The position numbers and the translations under genes were made by a program. From NCBI GenBank assembly GCA_040954595.2, contig CM082577.2, positions 13,895,903 to 13,959,902 of the forward strand: a DNA stretch of 64,000 nt. The letters run 5' to 3'. This document shows, in pieces, positions 20,101-52,579 of this stretch (its first letter is position 1; each line of letters opens with the position of its first letter). This DNA comes from Balanoglossus misakiensis (lineage: Eukaryota > Animalia > Hemichordata). Under the pieces are notes generated by a model that was given only the letters and a program-made list of their open reading frames with translations, made no database searches and was not told the origin of the DNA.

Positions 20101-21123
20101 ACTTAGCACTATTTGACTTTGTTTAGAATATGGCTGGGTATGATTGCAAAAAAATTAGTATCAAAACAATTAATCTGATCCTGAATGTCGATCATTTTTC
20201 CCCAAAAAAAACAATACACGATAACATTTCTTCACCAATGGCAGTATATCATAATTAACACAAAATCTGAGATGTCTTAGGATATGTCCAATTTCTAAAA
20301 ATACATACATGTAGTAGGATGTAAAAGACAACTTGCACTGAAAACTTGCAGTGTTTCATTGAGGACACAGGTGAATTAGGCGTTCTATTCTGGGAAACAA
20401 TCAAACAAGTAAATAAACAAACAAACAAAATAACGTCATGATAAACAACGCGGTATCTTGAATTAAGCCACCCGCTCGTGCAATAGAGCAGCTGACACAA
20501 GAAGTGACTTGTGTCAAAGGTCCCATCCGTATGCTACTTGCTAGAAAATTGGTATATAGCAGGACGGTGTCCAACTCCCACTTGAAAACTGCTCGACACT
20601 GTTGAATATTCACCGTTTTTTAGCCTCTAAATGTCTGCCATCTTCAAAATTTCTACCCCATTTTAAAACATCAATAAACAGGCTATCATATCAGCATCGA
20701 TTTATCTGTCTCTCTTACCACTGGTTGTTGCGAGCACGTAAAAAAATATGACAATATCACAGTTTTTGAGGCGCATAGCAAGTCGTGGGAACATCAGGGC
20801 GTTTTATTGGAGCGGACTTCGTAACCCCAGGTCACCCAAGATACAAATTTCAAATACTTTCACTAGTAATAGTATTTCACTAGGCCTTCTTTACACTGCG
20901 TATAAAAAAGACAATATTCTTTGTTAGTAAGTACGATGTGCCAATGTCAGCATACTTGATAAGTAATGGTCGCGGTAAAATTTGTCCAAAAGAAGCTATG
21001 ATTATGCAAATTGTATGGAAATTAGCCCCGACTCTATGATTTTTCCCAGGGAGAGCCCTGTCCTGAATTGTCCCCCGAAAATGTGATCTAGCTGTCCCCC
21101 TTTCTAACCTGCTGCGGGTCACA
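17194..21123. mobile_element. Foldback-like element with ~140-bp outer inverted arms
   Basis: 17194-17335 is the reverse complement of ~20980-21123 (TGTGACCC.CAGCAGGTTAGAAA.GGGGACA...GGGAAAAATCATAGAGTC.GGGCTAATTTCCATA). Confidence 0.7.
18472..20023. mobile_element. Non-autonomous element with ~500-bp terminal inverted repeats
   Basis: 18472-18977 aligns in reverse complement with 19522-20023; termini TAC.GGCCC / GGGCCGGTA; no clear TSD. Confidence 0.85.
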
Positions 21124-29482: not shown

Positions 29483-30861
29483 TTAATATGTTGATTAGAT
29501 GACAGTTTTTCTAAACCAGGACAAGATTTCGACAATTGCGTTTACGGACGATAGATTTTTCGTAAGAAACAAATGGCTGTCGCTTATCCCTTATGCTGCC
29601 AAAGTTTGTGAAGCTGGTTTGATTTCCAGGTTGCCTAGAATCCTGGCACAAAGGCCTGTTTGGCTGCCAAGTGTGTGTTACTCGGTAGGGCCTTTACAAG
29701 ACCCTCAGCCAAACCAGTGAAAACCAGTACTATATAGTACATTTTGCGGGGGTCTAAAATGCAAAGGTATGTCAAATTACATTATATTATGTACCGGTAT
29801 GTGAGCCATACCGTTCAAAATAGGTTTAGAAAGAGAAAATGGCATATATATATTTTAAAGGACTTGACACCCTAAACAGGTATGACACCCATTAGTGTTA
29901 GGGTTAAACTGATCATGTCATGAAATAAAGCATCTGCCATATTGGAATTTACAGTGAACGTCCAAATGCACACCAAATTCATACAGCTGGTTTTGAAAGA
30001 AGACAGCTCTGTGAAGGATAGTTCTTTTAAATGATCATGGTATGAATTCATAAAAAAATTACATTCAACATCAGAAGTTTACTTTGAACACACAAATGAT
30101 GCAGTGTTGAAATGCCTCTACAAACCCATGAATTGATATAAAAAATTATGAATATCAGCCAAGTTTTATCATTCATTCCTCAAAAAATACCCTGTGACCC
30201 ATGTAGAAGTATGGTCTCGGTAAAAGGTTCCAATGCTCGTCCCATTCTATTGTTGCAGCTGAGCATTTCAAAGAAAATCTCATTTGCATATAGGTAAAAG
30301 CAAGCTTTGGTTACCAATTTGGTGGACACTTTCATCAAAAAATAAAAGTCTGATTTTGTCTCATTTCATGTCATAGCAAGAAAGTAGGACTGCTACTGTT
30401 TATGGAAACATATGTTAAAAGATAACTTTCTGAAGAATTTTTCTGATACAGCCAGTCATTTTATGATATGCAAAACACCTACTACGGATGTGACCTTCAT
30501 TTTTTTCAGAGAAAAACTTTCACAAAGGAACACAAGAACAAGTTAAATATACATTTCATTTCATATTTGATGAAGAGAAAGCTTAGTGAAAGATGTAAAC
30601 CAGTTTGCAACGGTTAAAAACCATATTTACTTACTCATACAGGAAACTGTAACATACGTCAGTTAATTTGCATTGCTTAAATTCAGGAACTGTGTCATAC
30701 ACTTTCAATATTTTAACAACAATGTGATAATAAAGCTCCACATTCTATATAGGTGGGTACAGATACAAGAAGTCTTCATTAGGTTAGCCGAAGTAAGAGT
30801 TTGAGACAAAGTTTATAAAACACAACCCAGTTTTTAGGTCCCATTGGTATAGGCATATATA

Positions 30862-31207
30862 TGTGGGGGTGAATTTATTGAGCAAAGCTCTTTATATCGG
30901 ACTTCCGTGAAACCACGAACTGGTACAGAACAGTACTGCGATGCGTGCGACTCGCAGATTTCCAAAAACAACACTGAACTCGAAATTCCAGAATGTCAGC
31001 TCCAAAAATAGTCCATCGGACGCGGGGAAACCCATGAGCACCGATTGGCTCAAACCGTAGGATTTTGCTACATTTGACGTCAGTTTCACCGGCAATGCAT
31101 AAATTAAAGCTCAACCAAATCCGGTTTTTGCATCAAGCTCAAGCACTAAAAACACGAAACAACATGTAAATCATCAAAGATATTTCCTTTTCCCAAACCT
31201 TACGATA
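30862..31207 (-). repeat. BEL 3' LTR (346 bp)
   Basis: Matches the reassembled 5' LTR (345 bp); about 3 substitutions and 1 indel seen by eye. Confidence 0.95.
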
Positions 31208-31393
31208 TTCTCCGGCGGGCCCAAAGTGAAAATCCGACTGAAAGTCATTTTAATAGGCTAGAGTCAATGTACGAAATCGTCGAATGAATATCGATGGGAA
31301 AAGTTGTCGAAATCTAACACTGAAACAAACACAGCAAAAATATGCGAAAAGTTCTGACACTAATGTTTAATGTCATAGAATCGTCCAGATTGT

Positions 31394-34300
31394 TCATAAG
31401 TCCTTGATACAATTCTGGATCAGTTGTCGGGCAGCGATGGCTGTTTTCCGTTTTGGACGAACACTTCGATGGTCGTCTGGTTGCGTTGTGTCTTCGCGAT
31501 CCACTCCTCCTTGAGTGAACGCAGGAACGTCGTGTTCAGGACGATCGTCCGTAGTTTCCACACAGTTGGGTGACTGCACCTCCAGCGGGTAAAGTTTCTG
31601 GATTGGTCGATTGGTTTTACCCGATGATGTCTTGATTTCTGTAGATCTTACCAGACCATCGTTCCCGTAATAAAGTTTGAGAACTTTGGCCATTCTCCAT
31701 TTCATTCGTTTGTCCACATCACTGTGTACAAGTACTATGTCACCAACCTGAATAGAATTGGTTTTTGTACCAGTGGCAGTCAGTTGATGTCGCTCTCTGA
31801 GGGCGGTGAGGTATTCGGTAGACCATCTCTTCCAAAAGTCAGACAGAAGATGACACAAATGACGGTGTCGCTCATTGAGTGTGTTGTGGTTTCCATATGA
31901 TGGATCATTGTATTCATCTAGGTCCACAGGCAAGTTCGGTAGAGGCGTTAATGGTCGACCGTTCAGTAGATGTGACGGAGTCAAGGCAACCGGGTCATCC
32001 TCAGTTGTAGACACATAGGTCAAAGGTCGATCATTGAGCGTCCCTTCAATCTCCGCGAGAAGAGTGCGTAGTTCTTCGAACGTGATAAACGAGCGACCTA
32101 GTACTTTTTTGATCGCGGTCTTCGTCAGGCCAATTAAACGTTCCCAAAACCCACCATACCAGGGTGCGCGTTTTGGTATGAAAGTCCAAGTGACGCGATG
32201 TTCAGAAAGTTCTTTCTTGACTTCAGCTGACTCGAATAAATCACGGAGTTCGTCAGCAGCAGAAAGATATGTTGAAGCATTGTCCGATAACATTTTCGTA
32301 GGTAGAGATCGCCGTGCTGCGAAACGTCGAAATGCCATCATAAAGGAGTGAGTGCTCAGGTCTGGCACAAGTTCAAGATGGACTGCACGTGTTACTGCGC
32401 ATGTAAACAAGCACACGTAACATTTCATTTCTTTCTTGTCTGTTGTTTTGACGAATAAAGCTCCTGTGAAATCAACTCCCGTTACCGTGAACGGTGGCAC
32501 CATGTTTACACGATAGTCCGGTAATGGTGCAGTTAATGGCTTTTGATACGGTTTGCCATCAACACGTCGACAAGTTACACATTTGCGCGCGATAGACTTC
32601 ACTGCGCGTCGAATCTGCGGTATCCAGTAGCGTTGTCGTAGTGACGTGATGACGGATTGAGTTCCACCGTGTTTGAGTCGGATATGATCATGTCGAATAA
32701 TCAGATCGGTAAAATGATGACCATTGGGCAGTAGGATGGGGAACTTGGTAGCGAAATTTACCGGTGCGTTATGTATGCGTCCCCCGCAGCGTAGAATTTC
32801 GTCATCATCAATGAAAAGTTTCAGCTGTCTTACTAACGGACCGTATTTCTTGTTTTGACCACGTAGCGAATTTATGGTATCGCGGTATGTGTCGCTCTGG
32901 ATTTCTTTGATCCATATGATTTCTGATTCATTGATCTCGTCAGCTGTGATCGGTCCGCGTGGTACATCGCTTCTGTGTTTCAGTATAGACACAAAGCGGC
33001 GAACATATGCAGTAATTCGAAGGAGTTTGTTTAGAGAACTGTAGTTTGATGCGTCAATAGCATGTTGAATTCCAACGGGAATCTCGCTCGGTGCGACAAT
33101 TTCTGACGGCGAATTTATTTGTGGCGACTCGCGTGTGTACGGTTCATTGTGCGGCAAGTTGCAATGAACGGCGTAGTCATCATTGACAGCAGGCAATACA
33201 GAACGTACCCCTTCGGAGGGTAAACTAGCTAGGTGGTGGACTGAAGTGTCGTTTTCCTCAGTCGTGACCTCACCAAAGTTCGCGATTGTATCAGTTTGTT
33301 CCTCGAACAATGGGGAGTCAAACAGATGGCAGATAGGACAACTATCTTTCGTTGGCAACCACTCTGGTCCTTTCCACCAGAGTTCAGACTTGTTCAGCTC
33401 TTCAGCAGAAATTCCGCGTGTAAGAAGATCAGCGGGATTGTAGGCGGTTGGACAGTATTTGTAGTCTTGTGGGAAATCTTTTATTTCCTTCACTCTGTTT
33501 GCTGTGAAGATAGGCAGCTTTTTATCGCTATTTATCCAATGTAGTACGATCTGCGAATCTGACCAAAGAACGCGTTTTGTGAAGTTGTATTTTGAAGATA
33601 GCGCGTCGCACACGAATTTACTCAGTCGAGTGGCGATAACAGCGGCCACCAGCTCCAATCTGGGCAAAGTCAGTGTCTTGTTGTTGATTGGAGCCACGCG
33701 GTTTTTAGCCATGACAAGTGCGGTTTCGTTATCTTTCTTTAGGTAAACAACAGCACCGTAAGCTTTCATTGAAGCGTCAGCGAAAACGTGTAGTTCGCAG
33801 TCGGTATTGACTGGCTTGGCAGTCTCAGGAAAATATTGCCGGTTCAATGCAGTATTGGCGCTTTGATTCAAATTATCAGCGATTGTACACCATGCGTTTG
33901 ACATGTTGTCCTCGAGGGGCTCATCCCAATGTACATCGGCTTTCCATATTTCTTGGATGAGTAGTTTTGCTTTGACATGCACGGGTGAAAGTAGACCCAG
34001 CGGGTCATACAGTGACGCTGTATGACTGACCACGTCGCGTTTAGTGGGTAGCACGTTTGGGGATTTATCAGCGATATCTTTGTACGTGAGCGTATCATTT
34101 TCTGTGTTCCATTGCATTCCGAGAGTATTTACACGCGGTGACGGATTTAGTTTGTTGTCATTCTCAGCAAGTGTACGCACAGTCATTGTTCGATGACCAC
34201 GAACGCAAGTTGAAACCACAAGAATCCATGAGTTTGTTGGATTCCGCGTAGTATGTTTTGGCTTCAGTTTCAGAAGCGCATCCACTGATTACATCATCAA

Positions 34301-37054
34301 CGTAAATATCTCGCTTCAAGTCCGAGGCGGCGGGAATTTCCGTATTAGCTTCTAGCTGCGTCTTTACAACGGCGTTGAGTATGAATGGGCTACAAACCGC
34401 TCCGAATAAAACCGATTTGAACTCAGGAACTGATATGTGACGAATTCACTTTCGGTGTCACTCGCGTTTGAAAGCCACAAGAACTTTGTGAACTTTCTAT
34501 CGTGTGGTTCAAGTCGTATTTGAAGGAATGCCTTCTCGATATCGCTAGCGATTGCGATCGGATTTGCTCTGAAGCGCAGTAGAATGGACGTTAAATCGTT
34601 CAATAACGGTGGCCCTGTTAACAAACAATCGTTCAGGCTTGGAGACGTGTTGTCGCCTTTGCAACTACAATCGTAAACGATACGAATGGGTGTGGTCGCG
34701 GAGTCTTTTTTGACGTGTCTATGCGGCAGGTAGTGACCACCTTCAGGGTTGTTGTTTTCGACGCGTTCAATGAAACCCTGTTTTTCTTGATCAGCGATGA
34801 CTTTATCGTATATAGTTAGAATGTCCGAAGGAAGTCTGCGTATCATTGCGCGTGTTCTATTACTAGCAACACGAAAGTTAGTAGGTAGCGGATCATGGTC
34901 CGGTTTCCATGGTAACTTGGCGACGAAGTGATTGTCCTCGCGACGAAGATGCGTATCTCTATATGCTTCGAATTCGGCTTCTTTGGTGAGCTCGGTGTCG
35001 GTTCGCGATACGTTGTCTTTTATGCCGATGGACTCTAAGTCCCAATATGAAGTTATCGCGTTGTCATTCAAAGTGTCCGTAATGACATGGAATACGTTCG
35101 CAGCAGTAGTAGATTTCCCTTTCAGTTTTGGGCCGGAGAGTAAGTAGCCGAATGGCGAACTAACGGCGGTAGGACCTTGACCGCGGATAATTTCGTTTCC
35201 TACAAAACTCCAGTAATAATCCGCGCCTATGAGAATATCAATATCGTAGCACCCGTCGTTCGAGACAGGGTGGGCCAAACGGAGGCCCTGCAAGTACGGT
35301 AATGTCAGCAGATACGGATCCACATGATTTTTGAGGCCCGCGGAAATTTCGGGAATCAGAAGCGCGTCAATTGGTAATTTGTTACCAGCTATGGTGTGGA
35401 GGTCGAAAGTCCCTTTCTTCATGGAACGCATGCGTGTGTGTTTATTTCCGAAGGCGGCGAGATTGAGCGATTCTGAGCGTGAAATATTGGCGCGAACGCG
35501 ATCGGCGAAACTTTCTGTTACGAATGTACGGTTCGCCCCTTCATCGAAAAGTACTGTGGCGGTGACGACAGTTCCGTTGTTTGCGGAGACTGGGATTTTA
35601 GCAGTTTTCAATAGTACCGGACCGGTCAGTGCACTACTCCCGGATGAGAAGTGCACCTGTGTATTTTCTGACATTGATGAACGTCGTTCGCTGTCATTTG
35701 CAGAATTGTTCACTTTGTGTCCCTTGTTTCGTTCAGTTTGACGGCCACTTTCACTGCGGGACTCGGTTTGCTTTCCGGCTCTATTGTTGCGAACAAAGTC
35801 AGTTTGATGTAGCGAAGTATGATGTTTGCGTTGACAGTGTCTGCACGAGTATTTGGAAATGCATTTTCCGACTACATGTTTTCCCAGACAGTTATAGCAA
35901 AGTTTGTCTCGGCGTACAATCTCCATACGTGACTTAGCATCAGATACAACTGTGCAATCGTTTGGTGAATGAGTTCCTTTGCAGTAGACGCAGGGACGTT
36001 GCTGATTTGGTGACCGAGAAAATCTCTGCCCTCGAGTCGTAGAATTGGAATGAAAGGTGGCGATGGTTGCCGGGTGGCGATGGACATCACTGTCGTTGCC
36101 TACAGATCTGGCCCTTATTTCACATAGGACGGCTTTGCGGAGATCGGGCAAGTCCCAGGGAACTTCTCCGCGAGAACGAGCCAGTATTTGCTGTACCTCT
36201 GTGGGTAGTTTTTCCAGTATCATGGGTATAAGTAGTTTCCCATATGAAGTTTCTTTCTCTCCCAGAGCGTCTAGACCGCGTACGTGGGATTCGTGTGTAT
36301 CGTAGAATTGACGTAGACTTGTTACATCAGCAGTCGGGGTGGGAAGTTCCCACAGAGCTTTCATATGAGCGCTGATGATCGTTTGCGTTTGACCGTATCT
36401 TTCCTTCAAAATTGCTATAGCGTTGGCATAATTTGCCTCGGTAAGTTCAAGTCCTTCAATGGAGCGTACTGCCTCGTCCGTTACGAGACTTCGTAGGTAC
36501 GTGAACTTTTGAACGTTAGAAAGTGAACTGTCCTGATGAACAGATGCGTTGAATGTATCCATGAAGCTTACCCATTTCAGTGTGTTCCCTGCGAAAGTTT
36601 GGAGCTCGAGTTTGGGTAGTTGAACCGTTTTTCGTTGGGCGACGACTGGCCGCGTAGATTCGGCCGTAGAAACAGCTGCGTTTCGAATTGTAGTGAAATC
36701 ATGTTGATGAGTTTCGATAAACTGTCCGATGAGTTCTTTTCTCTCTGAAATTGTAACTTCGTAGTCGCCTGTTTCTTCGACATCTCTATCGGTTTCGGGA
36801 TCTGGAGTGTTGTTGAAAATCTGTTCGTCGATGGCTGCGAGTCGCGAATATCTCGTCAGGACGAGAGCGTAGGTTGCTTTGATTGTAGCGTAGACTTGTG
36901 ACTTATCGGCCTCATCGTTTGAATCGTTGTATTGCGCGATTTCTCCTTCTGCTTTGTTGAAAGCCTTCGTAAGTTGCGATCGGCACACTGTTCTTCGTTT
37001 CTTGAGATCGGGAAGAGGGTTTTGAACCGCTGGTTGTTCGGCGTTGATAGACAT
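31394..37054 (-). pseudogene. BEL/Pao Gag-Pol polyprotein (Gag, Cys-His knuckles, protease, RT, RNase H, integrase), two frameshifts
   Basis: ATG at 37054. Motifs LPKLELQTFAG, CVYC..H..C, CYNCLGKH..C, LFDEGA, RIVYDCS, DIEKAFLQI, YVDD (third frame, 34293-34304), LHVFADAS, PRLEL, GVDFTG, SDNAS, PWYGGFWERL. Frameshifts near 34425 and 34185. Confidence 0.95.
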
Positions 37055-37067
37055 CACGGAATCCGAT

Positions 37068-37085
37068 ATCCTGGTCTCGGCACCA
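37068..37085 (-). other. BEL primer-binding site, tRNA-His-like
   Basis: TGGTGCCGAGACCAGGAT a few bases inside the 5' LTR; one mismatch to the complement of the invertebrate tRNA-His 3' end as I recall it. Confidence 0.7.
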
Positions 37086-37361
37086 AAATAATGTGGGGGT
37101 GAATTTATTGAGCAAAGCTCTTTATATCGGACTTCCGTGAAACCACGAACTGGTACAGAACAGTACTGTACCGTGGCCGAAATCGACACACGGTGTAGGT
37201 TTCAAACCTACACTGTCCCTTTGCTACAAAATGCGCGCGTACGGTGTAGGTTTCAAACCTACACTGTCCCTTTGGTGAAACGAAAAAAGCAAGTGTAGGT
37301 TTCAAGTAGTGTCCACAATGTTGTGATCAATTTACATGAGAACCTTTTAATTTCTGCACAG

Positions 37362-39676: not shown

Positions 39677-40339
39677 ACCGGTATGAATGTATTATATTAA
39701 TTATGTCGAGGTTTGCATATATTGAAAATTCGGGCTACAGTCAATCTAGTGATTTTAGTGGATTGAGGCTTTCAACAGTTACAAGCAACCGAACACATAC
39801 TGTTCCTTTACAAGTAAGTACCGTGGACCTCGCCACAAAACAAAAACAAAAACAAAAACAAACCAACAAACAAACAAATAACAAGACAATGTCTACATAT
39901 AACACGCGAAAACATCAAATATCTTTATAATCACTCACCTCCTTACCCAGGCGAGACTCCGTTTACCTGCGGCTGTTCGTTTGTTCGCAAAAACTCATAC
40001 TCCAGTACTGTACTTCCGGTGGACACTACTTGAAACCTACACTTGCTTTTTTCGTTTCACCAAAGGGACAGTGTAGGTTTGAAACCTACACCGTACGCGC
40101 GCATTTTGTAGCAAAGGGCAGTGTAGGTTTGAAACCTACACCGTACGCGCGCATTTTGTAGCAAAGGGACAGTGTAGGTTTGAAACCTACACAGTGTGTC
40201 GATTTCGGCCACGGTAGTACTGCGATGCGTGCGACTCGCAGTTTTCCAAAAACAACACTGAACTCGAAATTCCAGAATGTCAGCTCCAAAAATAGTCCAT
40301 CGGACGCGGGAAACCCATGAGCACCGATTGGCTCAAACC

Positions 40340-40743
40340 TAAAGTAATACTCGCCCTACTGGGGGGAGAATACTACTCGCGGTTAGCACCGGCTGTGTAT
40401 ATATTACCTACACAAAGCAGTCGATGCTGTTACTAACTATGACTAAAGACTTAACTATCTTAAACGCTATATAAAGGTGAGACAGAACTATACGAGAAAG
40501 CTTATAAGGATATTACTTACGTCTTGATCAGTATCAGGTACAATTCGGTCTATCGGATCTCCAGCTCGTCGGAACGGCGTGCTTTCCCCAGGTCCGCCCA
40601 CACTGCTGTTGGCCTCATCCATTGGTGTTGCCCCTGTCAGTCAGATCTCCGTGCTCCGCCTTCCACGGTCCTGGCTGGCTGTCGCCCTGGGCAACCGACT
40701 CCGGCTGCCAGTCATCCGGGGGTCCAAATGTAATTCCACTACA
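40340..40743 (-). repeat. Gypsy 3' LTR
   Basis: Only one substitution seen versus 51367-51770 (AACCGACT vs AACCTACT). Confidence 0.97.
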
Positions 40744-41046
40744 CTCGTCCTTCTTTTCTTTTTGGGAGATCCTCCCTGGGGCTATATGTCGGGTAATGGG
40801 AAGCCTGAAACGGTGGGGTTCCCTGGAAACGTTCGTCGGGCTGGTCCTGAAAATAAAAAGATCTCGGGTGGCTTGCCCGCGGAAGCGGGCACCAGAATAC
40901 TCTCTGATATTAGATTCCAGCCAGGGTGGCCGGATTGGGTTTTGTGGTTGTTTGGCATGTTTTTCCTCCGCCAGAAGCGGACGTTTGGGTAGGTTCTTCC
41001 TCCGTCAGTGACGGATATGTTTTGTTGACGGGTTTGCTTTGTTTCT

Positions 41047-43248
41047 TCAGGCCTGGTACAGACGGCGGGCGTTTTCGGCCGTCTGCGCCAACAGCTGGCG
41101 AGTCGAGGTATCTCGCAGTCTGGCGACCTCTAGTGCGACGTCCCCAAGGAAGGCAGGCGTATTCATACTCTGGGACTCCCACACGCGTCTGCTGGGCGAC
41201 TCGGTCTCCACTAAGATCCGGTCCTCCGGGATAGCCTGCATGGCTTCAATCTGTCGCTCATCAAACTGGCGGACGGCGGCCGAGAACCCAAAATAGGTCT
41301 CGGGGAAGTACCGCCGCCAGTCTCCCACGGTCTCCCTACATCCTCGGAAATCCTGGAGGTGGATCCGCTGGCTCTCGTCGCAGTGCCTGGTCATGGTTAG
41401 TAGTGTCCAGGCTGCCGTGTGTCGGTCATACCTGTCGTTGGAGGTTCCCCGGGCGGTGATGACTACCGGCCTCCTTCCCCGGTTCATAGTCAACAGGTCT
41501 TCGAAGACCCTATCTTGGTCTTCCCAGGTGGAGGGGTCTTCCGTCCGGTCGAGTCCAATGTCCCCTAGTGCGGCCACGTCTGGGCGTCTCAGGAGGTTAC
41601 CGAGGGTCTGGCGTTGATCCTTGGTCAGGTTTGGTGCCACTCGTGGGTTAACTCCCAGGGCTATTGGAAAATCTTGTTCCTCCGGCAGCGGGTCCGGGTA
41701 CCGATCCGGCTCAGAGAATACTTGTAGCCCTCCGAGGAGCCGGATTCGATAGTCTGGAAGGACACCAACATCGAAGTCAGTGAGGTCTTGTGGATTTGTT
41801 GGAGCGTCCTCCACTCTACATGTCTCGGCGCAAGCCTGGGGGTAGAAACATGCGTCTATTCCCCCGGGTATGGATGGGTCCCGGGCTGCTGTTTCGGATG
41901 GCTGTGTCCGGGTTGCTGCAGGTCTCCGGGGCGGCTGGATCCTCCAGAATTCGTCTTGCCGTGCTCGTGATACCCATCTAAGCAGCACGCTCAGCACGCG
42001 CCAGTGGATGAGGATTGCTGGCGTGGTGGGGGGGTTCAGCGGGAACTTGTTGGGTACTTCCCACCCCTGAAACACACATAGACGCTTCATCATAACGATG
42101 CTCTCGGGTGAGCACAGGGATTCCGATGGGATTTTTCCGGGTCCACCCCTACGAATAAACAGATCCAGCAGGTCGGGTATCTCTCTCCCGGGACCACATA
42201 GCCAGTAGGTCAACTTCTCTAAAGCCTCCACCGCGTCCCGCTCGCGGAATACCTGTGGCCTCTCAGCAAACAGTTCGGGAAGATGACGGTGGAATACATG
42301 CTTTTTCAACTTCCGTGTTGACGCCCGGCATCCCGGGAATGGACATGGAGAGGGGCCATACGAGAAGCGTGGACCAGGGGGTGGGGAGTTTTTTCGGGTC
42401 GGCCCGGTGCTCCTCCATCGGTGTTCGGTCTGTCTGGGCGGTTCCGGCGCTGGATACCGGATAGGTGAACGACGCCTGGGGCTGAGGTCTCCCCAGCGCA
42501 AATGGGATGGTCGTTCGCGGGAAGGCGGGCGGTCCCGCCTCTCCTCTCTAGCACGACCCGGTCGAGGCGACCGGGTTGGGGATCTGGACCTAGTGGGGAA
42601 TCCAAGAAATTCCCGGAGATCCGAGGGGATATTGATCTCCCCCATCTCCAACATCTCCTCCGACGTTATAGGTCGGATCGGTAGCTGCAGCGGCAGCGTC
42701 TCATGGCGTGGGGGTGGTGGCTCCTGTAGAAATGGCCTGCTACCTTCTGCTCTTGGGGGTGGTTCTGGCCCCTCCAACACCTCCATTGCCTGGTCTTCGT
42801 CGCCACCAAGCACCTGTCTCTCCTGCTGTGGGTCCGGAAAGATGCTCAGGGTTTCTTCCTGGTCGTCAGCTGCGGTGGTGGTTCTGGGGAGCTCTCGCAT
42901 AGACAGACTGCCGACGAACCCTCCCCGTACTCGGCCTAGGTTGAACTCCCGAGGTACTGTGGTTTTCGGGACGGTGGGGCGACTCCTCATGGCTTCGTCG
43001 GGCGTGGGCAGATGGGTGTTAACCTTCTCCTCCCCGTAGATCCGGATGGCCTCCTCCCGGGTGATGGACATACATCCCACGTCCCCAATCACGGCGGCCA
43101 CCTGAAAGTGCTCGCGGAGCATATCGAACATCGTTGTCTCGTCCACGCCGAGGTCTCTCAACCGGGGGATCACACTGATGGGGTCCAAGAGTTTCCCCTT
43201 GCCACATCTGAAACGGATGTCCTCCAGTTGACGTTGATTTGAATCCAT
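41047..43248 (-). CDS. Gypsy ORF3: Pro/Arg-rich region, C2H2-like finger, C-terminal TatD-fold domain (probably inactive)
   Basis: Intact ORF from ATG 43248. CPFPGC..12..HVFHRH; TatD-like motifs LGVNP, ALGDIGLDRT, RPVVITARG, IHLQDFRG, FGFS, IPEDRILVETESP, NTPAFLGDVA, TAENARRLY. Confidence 0.85.
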   Translation of the reverse strand: MDSNQRQLEDIRFRCGKGKLLDPISVIPRLRDLGVDETTMFDMLREHFQVAAVIGDVGCMSITREEAIRIYGEEKVNTHLPTPDEAMRSRPTVPKTTVPREFNLGRVRGGFVGSLSMRELPRTTTAADDQEETLSIFPDPQQERQVLGGDEDQAMEVLEGPEPPPRAEGSRPFLQEPPPPRHETLPLQLPIRPITSEEMLEMGEINIPSDLREFLGFPTRSRSPTRSPRPGRAREERRDRPPSRERPSHLRWGDLSPRRRSPIRYPAPEPPRQTEHRWRSTGPTRKNSPPPGPRFSYGPSPCPFPGCRASTRKLKKHVFHRHLPELFAERPQVFRERDAVEALEKLTYWLCGPGREIPDLLDLFIRRGGPGKIPSESLCSPESIVMMKRLCVFQGWEVPNKFPLNPPTTPAILIHWRVLSVLLRWVSRARQDEFWRIQPPRRPAATRTQPSETAARDPSIPGGIDACFYPQACAETCRVEDAPTNPQDLTDFDVGVLPDYRIRLLGGLQVFSEPDRYPDPLPEEQDFPIALGVNPRVAPNLTKDQRQTLGNLLRRPDVAALGDIGLDRTEDPSTWEDQDRVFEDLLTMNRGRRPVVITARGTSNDRYDRHTAAWTLLTMTRHCDESQRIHLQDFRGCRETVGDWRRYFPETYFGFSAAVRQFDERQIEAMQAIPEDRILVETESPSRRVWESQSMNTPAFLGDVALEVARLRDTSTRQLLAQTAENARRLYQA

Positions 43249-43249
43249 T

Positions 43250-43293
43250 CTGGGGGGGGGCAAAAAGAAAAGAAAGAAAATTAACGGTTAGTG
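43250..43293 (-). promoter_or_regulatory. Splice acceptor for ORF3 (branch point, polypyrimidine tract, CAG)
   Basis: Minus strand CACTAAC (43293-43287), then a ~30-nt T/C tract, then CAG|A ATG. Confidence 0.75.
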
Positions 43294-43358
43294 GGTCCTC
43301 GTCGGTAACGAGTCATAGTCCTACCCGATGGCAATTTCCCCTTTTTCCCTCTGTTCCC

Positions 43359-46300
43359 CTACTCATCGGTTCCCTCCCCCACGCAGTTCGGACAGTGAAA
43401 GGGGTCTGTCGATTTGACCTGTTTTGGGGAGAGATTGACGCAGGTGCTGTGAAACCAGTCGTAACAGCTGTCACACTGGACCATCAGCTTCCCGGTGTCC
43501 GGCCCACGGCAGACGCAGTATGTCTGCCCCCGGTCTTTGTCCTGCGCGTCAGGATCCCCACCCTTCAAGGGTAGTGACCTCTTGAATTTAACTATCCAGC
43601 TGGGCAGTTGCGCGTCCCTGCACAGCTTCATTCTGTCGTGGTTTGCGGTGGCGATGCGTCTCGGAAATTTCACCCGATACAAGTATGGCGATAGTTTCGC
43701 TATCACTACTCCTGGTCCCTTCCATGGTGGGCTTAGTTTTTTACATTTCCCTCTCACGGTCGCTGAGTCCAGAAGGTAGACGGGGTCTCCGACTTCATAT
43801 GAACTGAGACGTGCCTTCAAGTCGTAATCTCGCTTCATTCTTTCCTGGGTGACATGTAGTTTTTCCCGAGCGAGTTCATGGGCTTCCTTCATGGCGCTTC
43901 CCAAGTTGCTCGCATATTCTTCAGGGTCTTGGGCTGGCGCTGGTTTCCCGAAGACCAGGTCGGCCGGTTGGTTCACTTCCCGCCCCAGCATAAGGCGATT
44001 AGGTGTGAATCCGGTATTTCGGTTTACGGAGGTCCGAATGGCTCCGGCGATTTGGGGTAGGAATTTGTCCCACTCGTTCTGTTTGCCCTGGACGAAACAG
44101 CGAACTGCATCCATGAGGGTCCGGTTTTGCCGTTCCACCTGGCCGTTCGCGGACGGGCGGTACGGCGTGGTCCTAGCCTTGTGTATTTGGAGCAATTCGC
44201 ATACTGACTGGAACAGTTGACTTTCGAAATTACTGCCTCTATCGGTGAATATCTCGAATGGACATCCGAATCGAGAAAAGAATTCCCCCACGGCTGCCGT
44301 AGCGGTCGCCTCTGCCGTTTGGCTAGGTAGTGGAATGCACTCTACCCATTTGGTGAATTGGTCGACCATGACTAGGATGTATTCGTTTTTTCGGGGTGTC
44401 TGGGGCAGTGGTCCAAGGAAATCCAGGTGTACCCTTTCCATTGGCGATCCCACGTGGTACCGGGTCAGGGGGCACCTTGCATACCGCTGTGGTTTCTTGT
44501 GCTTGTTGCAATCGTGGCATGAGGCTACGTAGCTGCGGACATCATCTGCCATCCGAGGCCAGTGGTACTTCATCTGGAGTCTGGCCAGCGTCCGTTGTAC
44601 GCCTTGGTGTCCTGCTGAGGGGATCGCATGGTTCAGTTCAATTACCTCCGGTACCATTGTTCTGGGGATGACCAGTTTCCCTTCGCCCTCGTCCGTGGCT
44701 TTCCTCCGGAGTACTGGCATCTTCGGGTCCACGTAATATATTTCGCGGTTTATCCAGGCATTTTTTGCGGCGGGGCTGAGTAGGGCCAATGTGCTTTCTG
44801 CGGGAGTTTGGCCAGTATCCAGCCATTCCAATATCGGCCGTAGATCGGCATCTTCCCGCTGTCGTCGGTATATGGTGTCCAGGGTTTCCCGCCACGGCGT
44901 CTCGATTTCTGGCGAGCTGCTCCTAGTCACAGTGCATATCTTAGGGTCCGCCTGTGTATCTTCACCGGAGGAGGTGTCCTCTTCCCTGAAGTCTATTCCG
45001 ATTGACTTTAGTATTTCGTTGAAATCGAATCCTTCCCCAGGGTCCTCCGGGGGGTCTGCGAGGTGGTCATTCGCCTCGTCGTCTTCGTTGCCTAGGTTTA
45101 CCGCGCAGACGTCTTGTCTTATGTCTTTGGATGGTTGTGAGGCTAACGGTATTATTTCGTCTACCTTGGTGACGAAGTCTCCCCAATTTCTGTGCGCTCG
45201 TTGGCAATAATCACAGCCGCCGCAGGGAAGTTCGTCCGGCGTAACGTTGTGACAGTAGTGTCGGCACTGCCCCTGCGGTTCGATTCGAGATAGGGCATCA
45301 GCGTTGAGGTGTTTGTTCCCAGGCCTATGCTGAACCGTCATGTTGTACTGGCTAAGTTCCTCCAACCAACGGGCCAATTGTCCTTGGGGTTCTTTAAACC
45401 TCAGCAGCCAGGCCAGACTGCTGTGGTCCGTCCGTATTATGAAATGGTTCCCCAGCAGGTAGTGTCGAAATAACCGGGTAAATCGTACTACCGCTAGGAG
45501 TTCCTTTCGGGTCGTGCAGTACCTTGTTTGTTCAGGTGTTAGTGCGAAGCTGGCGTACGCGATTACTCGCTCCTCTCCATCCTGCACCTGGAGAAGTTCC
45601 GCTCCCACGGCAATGTCTGATGCGTCCGTGTCCAATATGAACGGGTCTTTTGGGTTTGGTAATGTGAGTACCGGCGCTGATGTTAAGCGATCTTTTAACG
45701 CTTCGAAGGCCAGCTGTTGCTCTTCGCCCCACTTGAAAGGCTTTTTTCCCGTAACTGCATACAGCGGGGCGGCCAACTTGGCATGATCCTTTATAAACGA
45801 GCGGTGATAGTTGGCTAAGCCTGCGAAACGTTCCACCTCCTTGGTGTTTTTTGGCGTCGGCCAGTTGCGCACTGCGTCAACGGAACGCGGGTCCAGTCCT
45901 ATTTTTCCTTTACGGACGATCCGCCCCAGGAATTCCACTTCCGTCTGAAACAGTTCACACTTGCGGGGGCGTAGTTTCAACCTGTATTCCCGGATCCGGG
46001 TGAACACGTCCCGCAGATTCTGGAGATGGTCAGCAAAGTCCGCCCCAAGTACCATGATGTCGTCTAAGAATGCAAGTACTACCTCCCATGTCAGCCCACG
46101 CAGCACCAGATTCATGGCTCGCGAGTATGTGGCGGGGGCGTTGCACAGGCCGAAGGGCATGCGGGCGAATTCAAACAGTCCGTACTTTGTGGTAAAGGCG
46201 GTCTTCTTGCGGTCATCTTTGTCCACTTCTATTTGCCAGTACGCTGAATTGGCATCTAGTTTCGAGAACCATTCGTTCCCGGCCAGCGTGTCCATGCAGT

Positions 46301-47882
46301 CCTCTATCAGCGGCAGGGGGAATACGTCTTTACGGGTCACGTTGTTCAGCGCCCGATAGTCGACGCACCAGCGGACGGTCCCGTCCCTTTTCCTTACCAA
46401 TACCGGCGCCGATGCCCATTCCGATGTTGAGGGTTGGATTACCCCTGACCGTAACATTTTCTTGAGATGGGCTTCCTCCTCCCCCGCAAAACGCAGTGGG
46501 GTTCGGCGCATCCTCTGTTTCACTGGTCGTGCATCCCCTGTATCGATACCGTGCGCAAGGGCTGTGAAGTTCCCCAGGTCGTATTCATTTGCAGCAAAGA
46601 CATCCTGGAACTCGATAAGTAGCTCTTTCATTTCCAGTGACTGGTTCTCCGTCAAGTTGGCTGCTGATTTCTCGGCCAACTCCCTCAAGTGATCTGGGAG
46701 CTCGTCTTCGCCATGTGGTGAAGCTTCCGTGAGTAGTTCAACCTCGCTGACTGTGCCTGTGGTGATTTCGATATCTTTGGTTAATGTCCGAAGAAGCTTT
46801 CCCCCGACTGCTGTTGCCACTACTGTTCCCGGCGGTATGGTGACATTGTCATCGGTCGGGTTTATTAAACAGATGATTGGGGGCTGCCCCTTTTTACAGA
46901 ATGTCCGGGGCATAATGACGTCCTCTAGTTTCACTGGCTCCACTATATAGTCGGGCATGTCCATGTCGATTGTCCCTGTCACCCTGGTCACGGAGTTCGG
47001 AGACAGGATAGTGCGAGGAGTGACTGATATGTTAGCCACGTGCGCTACAGCGGTCTGGTCCCCTTGCAGCAACGGGACCCGCTGTTCTCCCACCTGGAGG
47101 GTGTTTTCCCTCATGTCGAGGATGACCTGCTTGGATCGAAGTTGGTCGACTCCCAGCAGCATGGTGTCGCCTATGGGGCCCACATATATATTTTCTCGAA
47201 AGGCAGTGCTCCCTAACTTCAGGTTCACTGGTCCAATTTTGAATCCTCTCATGGACGAGTCTCTTCCGGCTAGTTGTACTTTGACATCGTGTATTATAGG
47301 CGGTTTTGGCTCTAGGGTGTCATACAGCCTGTCGGAAATTATTGTTATTTCTGCGGCCGTGTCTAGGACGGCGAGAACCTCGGTCCCCTCGACTTCTACG
47401 GTGACTTTGTACATTGAACTTGGGGTGATTTTACGGATGGTCACGCTGGGGGGAGCGGTGGTGTCGCTTTGGTGGCTCAGCTCGATAGACATCGCCGGTT
47501 TGGGCAGCTGATCGCCGTCACTGGCTGGCTCGTTCTCCGAGTTTTCGATCAGCACCTCTTCCCGGTTGACGAGATATAACAGCTCCCTCTCTGAGTTCTC
47601 TTCCAGCGCTTCAGTAGTCACTGCCCCGAGTTCCTCAAATTGTCCAAGTTCGCCATCGGTTGCGTCTCCGTCCGAGCCCTCTTCTGATTCGGAATCAGTT
47701 CCCGGTGGACATACCGGGGGTAAGTCGGCATTGTTGGCAGACGGATTACGGCTCCCGGTGGCTCTGTCTATAATGTTCTTTTCGTCTTCCCCCACTGGCT
47801 CCCCATCTGCGTTCCTCATAAGGCCAATTCCGGTGACTTGGGTCGGGCTTAGGCCTCTTTGACCGACCCGTTCCGGTTTAAC
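43359..47882 (-). CDS. pol: Gypsy Pol: protease, RT, RNase H, integrase with C-terminal PHD finger
   Basis: LDTAA, CVDYRALN, LDANSAYWQ, MPFGLCNAP, FLDD, DTDAS, TDHSSL, H..H..CHDC, DFLGP, TDRGSNF, NGQVER; C4HC3 YCVC...CDSCYDWFHSTC...CPNC. The frame stays open up to the slippery site at 47876-47882. Confidence 0.95.
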   Translation of the reverse strand, partial: VKPERVGQRGLSPTQVTGIGLMRNADGEPVGEDEKNIIDRATGSRNPSANNADLPPVCPPGTDSESEEGSDGDATDGELGQFEELGAVTTEALEENSERELLYLVNREEVLIENSENEPASDGDQLPKPAMSIELSHQSDTTAPPSVTIRKITPSSMYKVTVEVEGTEVLAVLDTAAEITIISDRLYDTLEPKPPIIHDVKVQLAGRDSSMRGFKIGPVNLKLGSTAFRENIYVGPIGDTMLLGVDQLRSKQVILDMRENTLQVGEQRVPLLQGDQTAVAHVANISVTPRTILSPNSVTRVTGTIDMDMPDYIVEPVKLEDVIMPRTFCKKGQPPIICLINPTDDNVTIPPGTVVATAVGGKLLRTLTKDIEITTGTVSEVELLTEASPHGEDELPDHLRELAEKSAANLTENQSLEMKELLIEFQDVFAANEYDLGNFTALAHGIDTGDARPVKQRMRRTPLRFAGEEEAHLKKMLRSGVIQPSTSEWASAPVLVRKRDGTVRWCVDYRALNNVTRKDVFPLPLIEDCMDTLAGNEWFSKLDANSAYWQIEVDKDDRKKTAFTTKYGLFEFARMPFGLCNAPATYSRAMNLVLRGLTWEVVLAFLDDIMVLGADFADHLQNLRDVFTRIREYRLKLRPRKCELFQTEVEFLGRIVRKGKIGLDPRSVDAVRNWPTPKNTKEVERFAGLANYHRSFIKDHAKLAAPLYAVTGKKPFKWGEEQQLAFEALKDRLTSAPVLTLPNPKDPFILDTDASDIAVGAELLQVQDGEERVIAYASFALTPEQTRYCTTRKELLAVVRFTRLFRHYLLGNHFIIRTDHSSLAWLLRFKEPQGQLARWLEELSQYNMTVQHRPGNKHLNADALSRIEPQGQCRHYCHNVTPDELPCGGCDYCQRAHRNWGDFVTKVDEIIPLASQPSKDIRQDVCAVNLGNEDDEANDHLADPPEDPGEGFDFNEILKSIGIDFREEDTSSGEDTQADPKICTVTRSSSPEIETPWRETLDTIYRRQREDADLRPILEWLDTGQTPAESTLALLSPAAKNAWINREIYYVDPKMPVLRRKATDEGEGKLVIPRTMVPEVIELNHAIPSAGHQGVQRTLARLQMKYHWPRMADDVRSYVASCHDCNKHKKPQRYARCPLTRYHVGSPMERVHLDFLGPLPQTPRKNEYILVMVDQFTKWVECIPLPSQTAEATATAAVGEFFSRFGCPFEIFTDRGSNFESQLFQSVCELLQIHKARTTPYRPSANGQVERQNRTLMDAVRCFVQGKQNEWDKFLPQIAGAIRTSVNRNTGFTPNRLMLGREVNQPADLVFGKPAPAQDPEEYASNLGSAMKEAHELAREKLHVTQERMKRDYDLKARLSSYEVGDPVYLLDSATVRGKCKKLSPPWKGPGVVIAKLSPYLYRVKFPRRIATANHDRMKLCRDAQLPSWIVKFKRSLPLKGGDPDAQDKDRGQTYCVCRGPDTGKLMVQCDSCYDWFHSTCVNLSPKQVKSTDPFHCPNCVGEGTDE
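47840..47882 (-). promoter_or_regulatory. Putative -1 ribosomal frameshift signal (gag to pol)
   Basis: G TTA AAC in the gag frame, 6-nt spacer, 7-bp stem GGGTCGG/CCGACCC. Pol is in the -1 frame and opens one codon upstream. Confidence 0.75.
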
Positions 47883-50355
47883 TGGTCATTGAAAGACACG
47901 CGTTTCTGTGGGGATTCTGGCTTGGTGTCCGTTGACAGACGCGGACAGTCCTTTTTGAAGTGGCCTTCCTGACCACAGTGGTAACACCCGCGGCTCCTGG
48001 GGGATGGTGATCGGCTGGTTGTACTGGGTCGGTCGCCCCAGTTCATACGAGTTAGCTGATTAGTGAGCATTTCTACAGCAGTGCCCAGTCCGGACATCTG
48101 CGTTTCCACCCGGGCTAGGTGTGACTCCATCCGCGACAGGCGTCTATCCATAACAGGACTGCCCTCACTGGGTCGGACCTTGGGTTCGGTTGAGGGTATG
48201 TCGCGTTTCTGTCGCTGGGGGGTGGATGCTGCCTGTACTCGAGCTATCTCTTCGGCTTCTGAATCTGAACTGATTCGGCGGACTTCGCGTTTTGGTGAGC
48301 GGCCTCCGAATATCTCTTTGTTGTTGTACTGGTACCAGCGTATCTGGTCGATGGCTTTCTCCATGGTTTGGGGGCGCTGTGTGGCTGCATTCAATCCAGC
48401 CTCTCTGTCGGCGCAGCCCTGGCAGACCTTAATGATCGCTTGCCTAATCATCGCTTCCCCATCGCCATCGGGATAAGCTTGTGCTGCCAGGATGAGAACT
48501 CTGCCTGCCCACTCTTCCAGGGATTCTTCTGTGTTTTGTCGGGATTGATTGAACTTCATTTGAGCGGCCTCTGGGAGTTCACAGTACCCAAACCTTTTCT
48601 CCATTTTTCGGATTACCTCTTCGTAGGTGATGTCTTTCCCGGGGCCGGCGAGTGTGGTGTAAAACATACTGGCGCTCCCGTCGAGGCACCAGCACAGTTG
48701 GCTTTTCCGTTCCCGAGAAGTCCAAGCTTGAATATCCGCATATTGCGTGAACTTTGTATAGAACGCCCGCCAATTTCCTCCACCGTTGTATACTAACGTC
48801 TTCGGCAGGTTGACAGACAGTTGACGGGGGACAGGGTGATCTGTTTTCCAGCTTGGGGTGTCGACATGCTTAGGAAGAGTGCCGCCATCGGTGTCGGACG
48901 ATGGAGCGCCCGTCACGCCCCCTGGTCCACTTTGGCGGCGTGTAGACGTGGACGTCGGTGTAGTTGTCACGGCTGAGGCTCCGGTTCGGGCGTCCGGGCT
49001 TCGCGTCCCCAGTGCGGGTCCGGGATCAGACTGATATTGTGGTGCTGCCCCCCGATAGGGTGGTGTGGGGGGGTATAGGGTAGCGACTGTCGGGACTGTG
49101 GCTGCTGCCGGAAGTATGGACCCCAGTTGTACTGGTTGGCGTCCACCTGTTGGTGTTGTTGTGGTTGGGGATAGGCGCCCCAATTGTATCCGCTGACGTC
49201 CAGCTGTTGTTGTTGTTGTTGTTGAGGGTGTGGGCCCCAACGGTACTTGCTGGCGTCTGGTTGTGGTTGCTGGGGTTGTGGCGGATATGAGCCCCAGCTG
49301 TTTTTAACGTCTGTTTCCTTTTGACTCTGGTCATACTGGGTGTGTGTACCATACCAGCTGCCGCCGCCTGGTTCTGGGTACCCTCCCACTTGTTGTTTGG
49401 ACTGTCCCTGGTAGACAGTAGGGGGCTGTGCAGACGGTGTCACTCCACTGGGGTATGGTGTTGATGTGGCACTCCAACCATAGTTTCCGCTGTATGGATG
49501 TCCAGTGGGAGGCCCCCTGGTGGGGTGCATTGGTCCATCCCTGTGGGCGGATGGTGGTGTATCGCTAGGGTGTGGCGTCGAGGTGTGGCTCCACCCATAG
49601 GTACCGTTGACGGGATGTCCAGTGGGGGGCCCCCTGGTGGGGTGCATTGGTCCATCCCTTTGAGCCGACGGTAACGTACATGTATCGCTGGGGTGTGGCG
49701 TCGAGGTGTTGCCCCACCCATAGGTATCGTTGACAGGATGTCCAGTGGGAGGCCCCCTGGTAGGGTGCATTGGTCCCTCCCTTTGAGCCGACGGTAGGGT
49801 ATCGCTGGGGTGTAGGGTCGAGGTGTTGCCCCACCCATAGGTATGCGTTGGTTCATCCCTATTCCCACTGGACTGTGACTCTCCTGGTTTGACGTGATAA
49901 CTCGCGAACGCGCGTCGCGCCCTATCTAGGTCGCTCGGCGAGGCGTAGCGCGGGTCCGCGGCTGTGGGATAGCGTGCGTCTGGGGGGTTGACCTCCATCT
50001 CCTTACCCCCTGTTGCCAGTGGAATTGGACTCTCTAATTCCAAGACCGGCATCCCGTGATAATTCCCACCATAGTTGGTTGCCATGGGCAGAAGTTCAGG
50101 GTTACCCCTTACTCTTGTGTTGTAGTATGAACTGTCCTCATGCAATTCTGCTGGAGTATCTGGGGGAACACTAAAATTCGCCTTTTCAGCGAATTCGGGA
50201 GACCATTTGAAGTAGGGGATTTTCTCCACCATTTCCATGGTGACACTTCCATGTTTTTGCCTGAGAGAGATGATGGCGCTGGCAATCTTTTCCCCCACTC
50301 CTGGTAGATCCCGCAGGGTCTCCTCATCACAACAATTTATGAATACCTGGGCCAT
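47849..50355 (-). CDS. gag: Gypsy Gag (HhH N-terminus, tandem repeats, capsid-like region, CCHC knuckle), split into two frames near 49070
   Basis: ORFs 48967-50355 and 47849-49240 overlap; one extra C in the C7 run at 49067-49073 would join them. Motifs LRDLPGVGEKIASAII, YNGGGNWRAFYTKF, CYHCGQEGHFKKDC. Confidence 0.85.
49450..49845 (-). repeat. Coding tandem repeat in gag, ~114-120-bp unit, ~3.5 copies
   Basis: TYGWGNTSTPHPSDT.PSAQRDGPMHPTRGPPTGHP repeated. Confidence 0.9.
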
Positions 50356-51366
50356 GGTTTTAATTATATGGGGTGCAATAAATTACACACTGGTATACCT
50401 GGTATTCTCTTGGTGTTTTTACAAAGAAAGTTTTTATTAAAAATAATAAGTCAAAGTAAATAATTTCCCTCAGTAACAAAATAAGCAGTGAGTCAATAGG
50501 AAACTAAAATCTATACCTGCAGCGTAAAACAGCTGTAAATAAATGGGCTACTATGGGCTTTTCACTCAATCCTCTAAGAAAAATCCCGTTTTTATGGACC
50601 CTCCTGGGTAGAGACTTCTCCCCGTGAATTTAGTAAAAACCAATATGCAAATTAACTGGAACAATGGGCCCTTGCTGTCTGCGAAGTTTGCTTGAAATTT
50701 ATCCCACTTTATTCGTTACCTTCCTAGGTAGGGAACAAATTCTCCGGCAAACCTCACCGAAAACTCGCTCAGGCAGAATGAAGACAAGAAAATGCTATTT
50801 TGTCCTTCTTAAACTGTGGAAAGGTCTCCCTCACCAACACTTTGATTTCGGACAAACTCAAAATTTCAAGATGGCGGCCGTGAGAAAACACGAGTGGCTG
50901 CCTCGTGACCCCAATTTGCTTTCCCGATTTTCTTGACAGAAAAACACCCTAACTCAGAGCCTAATGTGCCCCGGGCGCGAGTGTGGGTTTTTTCCCCCGG
51001 GTTAAACAAGATAGAGCCCACTGATAGTAAAGTTTGGGGGCGATTACGTTTGCCTAGACCGCCCGGCCCAGACGAAAACAATCGCGACGATTTTTGTAAA
51101 GACACACGCAACAACAAATCGCGACTACGTGCTTCCCTGCACCCTACGCTAAAAATGCTGTCGACGGTCTCTAACAAGAACGCAAGGTTTTTGAAGGCGA
51201 CGAACCCCTTTTACTCCGCTTCCCACGGACGATTTCAGGACCCGCCGACTTCGGAGCAAGCGCTAAAACCTCTGTAAAATCGCTTGGGCCAATTTTCCCA
51301 ACTCCTCCAAAGTTGACAAGATGGCCACGATGCCCCCACGCAAAAATTCGTGAGTCGCAGCGCCAA

Positions 51367-51770
51367 TAAAGTAATACTCGCCCTACTGGGGGGAGAATAC
51401 TACTCGCGGTTAGCACCGGCTGTGTATATATTACCTACACAAAGCAGTCGATGCTGTTACTAACTATGACTAAAGACTTAACTATCTTAAACGCTATATA
51501 AAGGTGAGACAGAACTATACGAGAAAGCTTATAAGGATATTACTTACGTCTTGATCAGTATCAGGTACAATTCGGTCTATCGGATCTCCAGCTCGTCGGA
51601 ACGGCGTGCTTTCCCCAGGTCCGCCCACACTGCTGTTGGCCTCATCCATTGGTGTTGCCCCTGTCAGTCAGATCTCCGTGCTCCGCCTTCCACGGTCCTG
51701 GCTGGCTGTCGCCCTGGGCAACCTACTCCGGCTGCCAGTCATCCGGGGGTCCAAATGTAATTCCACTACA
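51367..51770 (-). repeat. Gypsy 5' LTR
   Basis: Adjacent to the PBS; termini TG...TA in element orientation. Confidence 0.97.
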
Positions 51771-52579
51771 AACCGTAAGATTTTGCTACATTTGACGTCA
51801 GTTTCACCGGCAATGCATAAATTAAAGCTCAACCAAATACGGTTTTTGCATCAAGCTCAAGCACTAAAAACACGAAACAACATGTAAATCATCAAAGATA
51901 TTTCCTTTTCCCAAACCTTACGATAATATACCATGGGACCTTATGGGATCGGTTGCGTCTGTATGTATGTATGGATGTATGTATGTATGGATGGATGGAT
52001 GTATGTCTGTATGTCCGTCCACATCAAAAACTTGAAAACCGCTGCGCGTATGACCTCGATATTTGGTGTGTAGATGAAGGCAGGGCTGTAGATGAGAGTT
52101 TGTTCAAATGAAGTTGTCATTGCCAAAAATATGCAAATTAGCTGGGAAAATGTGAAATTGGTCAAAACTTAAAAACTCAACAACCACTGGTCATATTGAT
52201 TTGAAAATTGGTATGCATGTACCTTATGTCAACCTTATACAGTCCTGTATGTTTTGAGCTAATATTATAGATTTCCTATTTTTTATGCATTTTTTGTATT
52301 TTTCCATGTTATTGGTAAAAAGTCTTCATTTCTGAAAGTGATTTCAAAATATGTTAGGCCGATCAACTCCAACTTTGGTGTGTAGCTAGCCTAGCATTTG
52401 ATAATCATTTTAAGCGAAAAAAAATATATAACAAATCGACCGATTTTTTTATATTAATTTTTTTTTTAATTTATACCTTTACTTATACCTCTATAGTAAA
52501 GCTATGTCCATGTCTTATTGTGGAATTCTGGTCTGTGCAATGGTGCTGTACAGTGACTGGCTATTGGCCAGTGAGCACA

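Follow-up and report, generated by a model that had tools for sequence, protein, structure and literature searches.

Why would a retrotransposon carry a nuclease fold in which the metal-binding residues have been replaced? This question is raised by the window analysed here, a stretch of 64,000 nucleotides of the hemichordate Balanoglossus misakiensis, in which we identified a very young Ty3/Gypsy insertion (40340-51770, minus strand) with paired LTRs, a target site duplication (TSD) and gag and pol genes. The 5' LTR (51367..51770, termini TG...TA) and the 3' LTR (40340..40743) are direct repeats of 404 bp with a single-base difference, bordered by the 4-bp TSD AACC (40336..40339 on the plus strand, second copy at 51771-51774). 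The insertion target is a dispersed repeat that is found uninterrupted at about 30932-31222 in the window, and the empty site is represented by contigs of public runs X2 and X3 that connect 40333 with 51769. The primer-binding site (51349..51366, starting TTGGCGC) was assigned by position only, and the polypurine tract occupies 40744..40763. No second copy of the element was found within the window.

The coding regions all lie on the minus strand, and the order from gag to pol (PR-RT-RH-IN, by Pfam) is that expected for Ty3/Gypsy. The pol frame (43359..47885, 1508 codons) encodes protease, reverse transcriptase, RNase H, integrase (H2C2 and rve) and a C-terminal PHD finger (Pfam E 2.8e-8). The gag frame (47849..49303), with PNMA/Retrotrans_gag and zf-CCHC domains, overlaps ORF1a (48967..50355), which is in another frame and combines an N-terminal helix-hairpin-helix with low-complexity repeats. 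This helix-hairpin-helix (50250-50355) matches HHH_3 at E 5.5e-6, slightly below the Pfam cut-off; it and the PHD finger are two more nucleic-acid- or chromatin-binding accessories of the element. The gag region (47849-50355) is read in two overlapping frames here and in one frame of 579 codons in a related locus (L005), and the window copy may therefore have gag damage or a frameshift.

Elsewhere in the window (30861-37168, minus strand) lies another LTR element, taken to be BEL/Pao-like from the look of its motifs only. Its two frames span 945 and 964 codons from stop to stop, and the direct repeats on either side of it (at 30861 and 37091) are identical over 78 nt or more. The Gypsy and BEL/Pao-like elements seem both to have been inserted in copies of one short dispersed repeat. 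Inverted repeats of ~100 nt (37169-37316 and 40019-40216) flank the region beside the Gypsy element, and the stretch 17250-21066 holds nested long inverted repeats with arms of 84-210 nt, 86-96% complementary, which have a fold-back or MITE-like look.

The protein in question is encoded by ORF3 (41047..43248, minus strand), an open frame of 733 amino acids between pol and the 3' LTR, as the first-pass annotation had reported. Its N-terminal part includes an Arg/Ser/Pro-rich basic linker (42352..42591, residues 220-299, with 22 basic and 7 acidic residues), an intact and family-conserved C2H2-like motif of the form C-x4-C-x9-H-x4-H (42283..42345; C302, C307, H317 and H322) and a family-conserved helical domain without a Pfam name that ends in HWRVL (41941..42261). 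In the ESM Atlas the N-terminal domain matched unnamed clusters only (0.90-0.91). TatD_DNase was the only Pfam family found in ORF3, and no transmembrane-length hydrophobic stretch was detected (maximum Kyte-Doolittle mean over 19 residues, 1.09), so that an identity as env was rejected.

In errantiviruses such as Drosophila gypsy, env is made from a spliced subgenomic mRNA. ORF3 resembles errantivirus env in its slot between pol and the 3' LTR and in having an acceptor-like site just upstream, but differs in being a TatD protein that lacks a hydrophobic segment of transmembrane length. The splice-acceptor-like site (43250..43294, minus strand) consists of a branch-like CACTAAC, a tract with 24/25 pyrimidines and CAG/AATG, and abuts the ORF3 ATG; it ranks first among the 374 YAG sites on the element strand, with a runner-up of 18/25 pyrimidines. 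A donor-like AG/GTAACG in the 5' leader (50718..50721, minus strand), the only match to the donor pattern within the first 1500 nt, is its candidate partner. Among related loci, the best acceptor-like site of L001 lies just past pol and the second best of L004 is found at that place; no comparable site follows pol in L005. From these signals, ORF3 is predicted to be expressed from an env-like spliced message.

The C-terminal barrel (41050..41871, minus strand; ORF3 residues 460-733) is a member of the TatD family, in keeping with the earlier description of a TatD-like barrel. A profile search gave a match to PF01026 (TatD_DNase) at E 3e-23 and 82.9 bits (cut-off 27) over profile positions 57-253 of 253, and the best PDB sequence matches were to TatD/YcfH (E 1e-8). 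With an alignment of 98 sequences, most of them intact homologues, as input, AlphaFold gave a model (pLDDT 93.7) whose best Foldseek matches were TatD structures (E 7e-13, TM 0.83 by target length). Since the barrel folded from its single sequence reached a pLDDT of 34.8 only, the alignment-based model describes the fold of the family and is not independent proof for the ORF3 sequence.

Is the TatD domain peculiar to this copy? By score or motifs, nine of the loci retrieved are members of the family (L001-L006, L009, L050 and L051). In four of these (L001, L004, L005 and L051) pol lies directly upstream of the TatD ORF, the motifs are canonical wherever the domain is readable, and pol is 40-58% identical to that of the window, with the likeness extending to its PHD end; the other five loci lack pol and are on contigs 1.1-3.4 kb long. 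Homologous proteins were also gathered (164, drawn in part from the best 150 of 1802 matches), of which 12 near-duplicates or bacterial sequences and 32 without residues at one or more ligand columns were left out. Ninety of the 120 that were scored have all ligands, and 14, three and 13 show one, two and at least three changes, respectively, in a sample of best matches in which ranking by likeness to the window may have enriched degenerate homologues. Proteins with at least three changes exceed the 3.4 expected under independence, a figure that ignores kinship. As these comparisons indicate, the clade as a whole carries TatD in the position of env, mostly in intact form, a point which the first-pass annotation had missed.

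The named homologues come from Ruditapes, Argopecten, Ostrea and Ptychodera and are labelled 'uncharacterized', 'TATDN2' or 'TatD-like'. They often form several near-identical genes, which suggests a transposon origin, and it seems that many bivalve and hemichordate genes annotated 'TATDN2-like' or 'TatD-like' are retrotransposon ORF3s. Some of the 13 other degenerate proteins may be host-domesticated genes. One homologue in Ostrea edulis, LOC130052597 (P0072 / P0169), is 1102 aa long and combines a degenerate TatD with what looks like two copies of the zinc-finger-like/helical domain; it is found on several 6-kb Logan contigs and is possibly a domesticated host gene.

No family locus was found on viral contigs. 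In a contig search of genomes, 2/80 loci kept were family members (L050 and L051), both in a Sedimenticola MAG, and the other 78/80 were much weaker matches without pol, gag or the N-terminal domain; a bacterial element was rejected for this reason. Locus L051 carries gag and pol, and both loci are probably animal-host DNA that was binned with the symbiont. The protein P0040, labelled as a Sedimenticola TatD, may be contamination of a similar kind.

We then asked how often ligands were lost in this family, using an IQ-TREE phylogeny of 50 selected rows (the window, all 13 degenerate homologues, 32 others and four bacterial) with the ligand columns removed; its bootstrap had not quite converged, and two of its joins carried a long-branch flag. 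The window barrel, on a long branch of 1.17, is placed together with three proteins of Ptychodera at a support of 93/84 (not starred); two of the three have all ligands. Parsimony requires nine changes of the degenerate state, at least five of them forced by starred branches, and the degenerate domains form one group in 0/200 bootstrap trees, so that a single origin was rejected. By this reconstruction, degenerate TatD versions arose independently at least five times, which the first-pass annotation had likewise missed. The bacterial outgroup rows have mostly canonical residues where they are covered, and the direction of change is therefore one of loss.

Since relatives carry an intact enzyme in the same slot, ORF3 is likely to be a non-cutting helper, and the fact that ligands were lost time and again while the barrel stayed would mean that a second, non-catalytic job is sufficient for selection. 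We therefore favour, by a modest balance of probability, the reading that ORF3 descends from an active nuclease of retrotransposons and is an accessory protein, likely non-cutting, with a binding, scaffold or shielding role. Intact forms of ORF3 (L004, L051 and the Ptychodera proteins, among them XP_070541281.1) and a selected ligand-less form offer a natural comparison, because their coexistence makes the catalytic and non-catalytic roles of the accessory gene separable.

The active site is the most direct evidence on cutting. All six motifs read as had been noted earlier: DACFY at residue 465, GVNP at 532, GDIGLD at 562, VITAR at 596, LQDF at 631 and ETESP at 681. Seven of the eight ligand positions are changed (H>C467, H>Y469, H>N534, E>D563, H>T598, H>Q632 and D>E683), and E681, which corresponds to E201 of E. 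coli TatD, is the sole unchanged one. All five ligand histidines are absent: C467 and Y469 stand in place of the class II HxH motif, the class I (G/A)xN motif that replaces HxH (as defined in the accessible text of PMC10085689) is likewise not found in the reading CFY, and the equivalents of E. coli H62, H127 and H152 are N534, T598 and Q632. On the other hand, the positions of E. coli E91, E201 and D203 (D563, E681 and E683) are all acidic, two of them by acid-for-acid exchange (E>D and D>E). The first-pass annotation, which had every metal-ligand or catalytic position changed, thus holds for seven positions and overstated the case for E681 and for the two conservative swaps.

Mutational work on related enzymes bears on what these changes mean. 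According to the available part of PMC4176340, E91A, E201A and D203A inactivate E. coli TatD and H62A strongly reduces its activity, the single mutants H127A and H152A remain active, and the enzyme is Mg-dependent though it has no HxH pair. In human TATDN1, as given in the accessible sections of PMC10085689, single histidine mutants are mostly tolerated and H77A spares the exonuclease; E112A alone lowers both activities and E112Q raises them above wild type, while D222A is without effect and the equivalent change lowers TATDN3 activity 30-fold. No test of the simultaneous loss of five histidines was found in the accessible text of either paper. Judged from its residues, the ORF3 barrel likely no longer cuts. 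The loss of five ligand histidines agrees with the earlier label "catalytically dead", but three positions essential in E. coli are still acidic and single histidine mutants are mostly tolerated, so that the loss of activity is a likely reading only.

The strongest competitor takes these acids as its starting point. It holds that ORF3 is a remodelled but active nuclease, whose former two-metal site rich in histidines became a carboxylate-only site (D465, D563, D633, E681 and E683) that would bind Mg or Ca and trim 3' ends, maybe slowly or on another substrate. Besides the reciprocal swaps at essential positions, D633 is a new acid near the pocket, where Cys or Ser is usual, and both the Mg dependence of E. 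coli TatD without HxH and the activity of the histidine and E112Q mutants described above point the same way; purifying selection would fit equally well. Nevertheless, the bridging Glu has been replaced by the shorter Asp, the H62 equivalent is Asn at a position where mutation is costly in E. coli, and the published mutants stop short of five missing histidines in the accessible text. Moreover, in most of the remaining degenerate homologues at least one essential acid is gone (the bridging E to V, T, P or L; D to G, N, S or Y), and degeneration is therefore not generally converging on a new acid site. We regard a remodelled nuclease as unlikely, though deserving of attention.

The N-terminal domain raises a further possibility, namely that the zinc-finger-like/helical part is what is selected and that a dead barrel is kept since its truncation or misfolding would harm the fusion. 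Among homologues of 450 aa or more this domain is conserved in 78/84, and ORF3 has an intact copy, in which 20/23 conserved columns are kept, including C-C-H-H (an alignment artefact at the first residue is left out), and the degenerate P0072 apparently has it twice. The acidic character of the barrel and its long branch would also suit a passive appendage. However, ORF3 and 13 other degenerate proteins have the barrel at full length, although one stop codon could remove it; the arginines that flank the pocket are kept; and the synonymous excess given below was measured within the barrel itself. A purely passive barrel appears to us distinctly improbable.

The favoured accessory role requires that the barrel is under selection, and the pattern of its changes is informative in this respect. 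Ligand columns changed in 7/8 cases compared with 6/36 other conserved columns, taken as those with at least 85% conservation among the 90 intact homologues (Fisher p=3.1e-4). Sister variants were mapped on the barrel domain from contigs at least 80% alike in runs X1 and X2 (one sample, one study). The 40 best-supported of the 125 variant places comprise 27 synonymous and 13 non-synonymous changes, for a pN/pS of 0.17-0.20 (binomial p<1e-6); the corresponding tally among the pol variants listed is 9 to 6. The barrel thus shows signs of purifying selection in these copies. No variants are found in codons 563, 598, 681 and 683 among the same best 40 of 125, and neighbouring synonymous or third positions vary. 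Codon 632, the H152 equivalent, is Arg in every covering contig, including one ~80% alike, and Gln in the window, and this histidine would therefore have been lost before the subfamily split. An assembly artefact was rejected, since substitutions that keep the frame account for the changes and the domain is spanned in both runs by contigs 98-100% alike. Together with the kept N-terminal domain and acceptor-like site, the targeted ligand loss and the low pN/pS support the earlier proposal that the protein is maintained rather than decaying. Recent decay of a dispensable, drifting ORF3 that is open by luck is very improbable: the long terminal branch, the six changed non-ligand columns (83% retention of such columns vs a mean of 94%, sd 5, in intact homologues) and the gag region split over two frames speak for it, but the ligand-specific loss, the synonymous excess, the intact acceptor-like site and a frame of 2.2 kb that is open at <40% identity with the nearest relative all stand against it.

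How might the accessory protein work? The accessible text of PMC10085689 describes intact TatD enzymes as 3'-5' exonucleases on ssDNA and RNA with additional AP-endonuclease activity, and a review describes TATDN2 as removing RNA from R-loops (PMC12754012, accessible part). In the mechanism that we favour, the ancestral ORF3 was a 3'-5' nuclease acting on single-stranded by-products of reverse transcription or on RNA:DNA hybrids, and an element-encoded TatD could plausibly trim or clear reverse-transcription intermediates. A binding role, provided by the basic linker, the zinc-finger-like motif and the pocket-side arginines, might alone suffice for selection, and the window ORF3 would then hold and protect the nucleic-acid ends, or the partner proteins, of the element as it replicates, without cutting. 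Of the seven basic columns conserved in the family, five are kept in the barrel (R536, R600, R677, R712 and R728), of which R536 and R600 adjoin the pocket; the conserved R472 is lost. The net charge of the barrel is -12, compared with +0.3 +/- 4.9 in non-degenerate homologues. Both the acidity and the loss of R472 argue against DNA binding by the barrel itself, and the partner may thus be a protein. The decoy guarding cDNA ends that the first-pass annotation suggested is a hypothetical role.

A wider version of this proposal is that a widespread Gypsy clade of marine invertebrates expresses TatD from an env-like spliced message and has often turned it into a selected pseudo-nuclease that shields cDNA or RNA:DNA from host nucleases or sensors. 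We put this forward tentatively, as rather unlikely in its full extent. If the shielding reading is true, ORF3 is an element-encoded counter-defence protein and reveals a non-catalytic function of the TatD fold; the locus also suggests that this fold has a job beyond cutting.

The comparison with known systems shows both what is familiar and what is new in ORF3. No TatD-bearing retrotransposon was described in the literature titles and abstracts covered by our search (Repbase, most subscription journals and bioRxiv supplements lay outside its scope), TatD cargo was not found in the accessible parts of PMC6238403, PMC8556966, PMC6338049, PMC13524379 and PMC6962438, and the terms 'TatD' and 'PF01026' were absent from seven supplements of PMC13524379. 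This agrees with the earlier remark that a characterised LTR element with such a cargo is not known, a Repbase entry aside. Enzyme-type, non-env ORF3s are already known, and it is the TatD cargo that is apparently undescribed.

With the cellular TatD/YcfH/TATDN nucleases (PF01026; 4P5U, E. coli TatD; 1YIX, YcfH; 6L25/2GZX, S. aureus) ORF3 shares the TIM-barrel fold and the order and spacing of motifs, and its relatives share their class II HxH active site. Unlike them, ORF3 lacks the five histidines, has two acids swapped, carries its barrel behind a zinc-finger-like/helical domain and is encoded by a retrotransposon. LTR retrotransposons with a third gene other than env have been described, none of these genes with a shown function in the accessible text of PMC5408684. 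The closest case described in the accessible part of that paper is the ORF3 of the bdelloid rotifer LTR retrotransposons Juno and Vesta, which is of the DEDDy 3'-5' exonuclease type with putative activity (Rodriguez et al. 2017, PMC5408684). It is likewise a non-env third ORF after pol with a 3'-5' exonuclease-type domain, but it has the DEDDy fold, keeps its invariant residues and belongs to other hosts and another element lineage; the same source notes the loss of catalytic residues in the GDSL ORFs of Athena-L. Maelstrom and EXD1, inactive DEDD derivatives that retain RNA binding (PMC5408684, accessible part), offer a further parallel, in that a nuclease fold has outlived the loss of its catalytic residues. 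These are host piRNA factors with another fold, whereas ORF3 is encoded by the element itself and its binding is putative.
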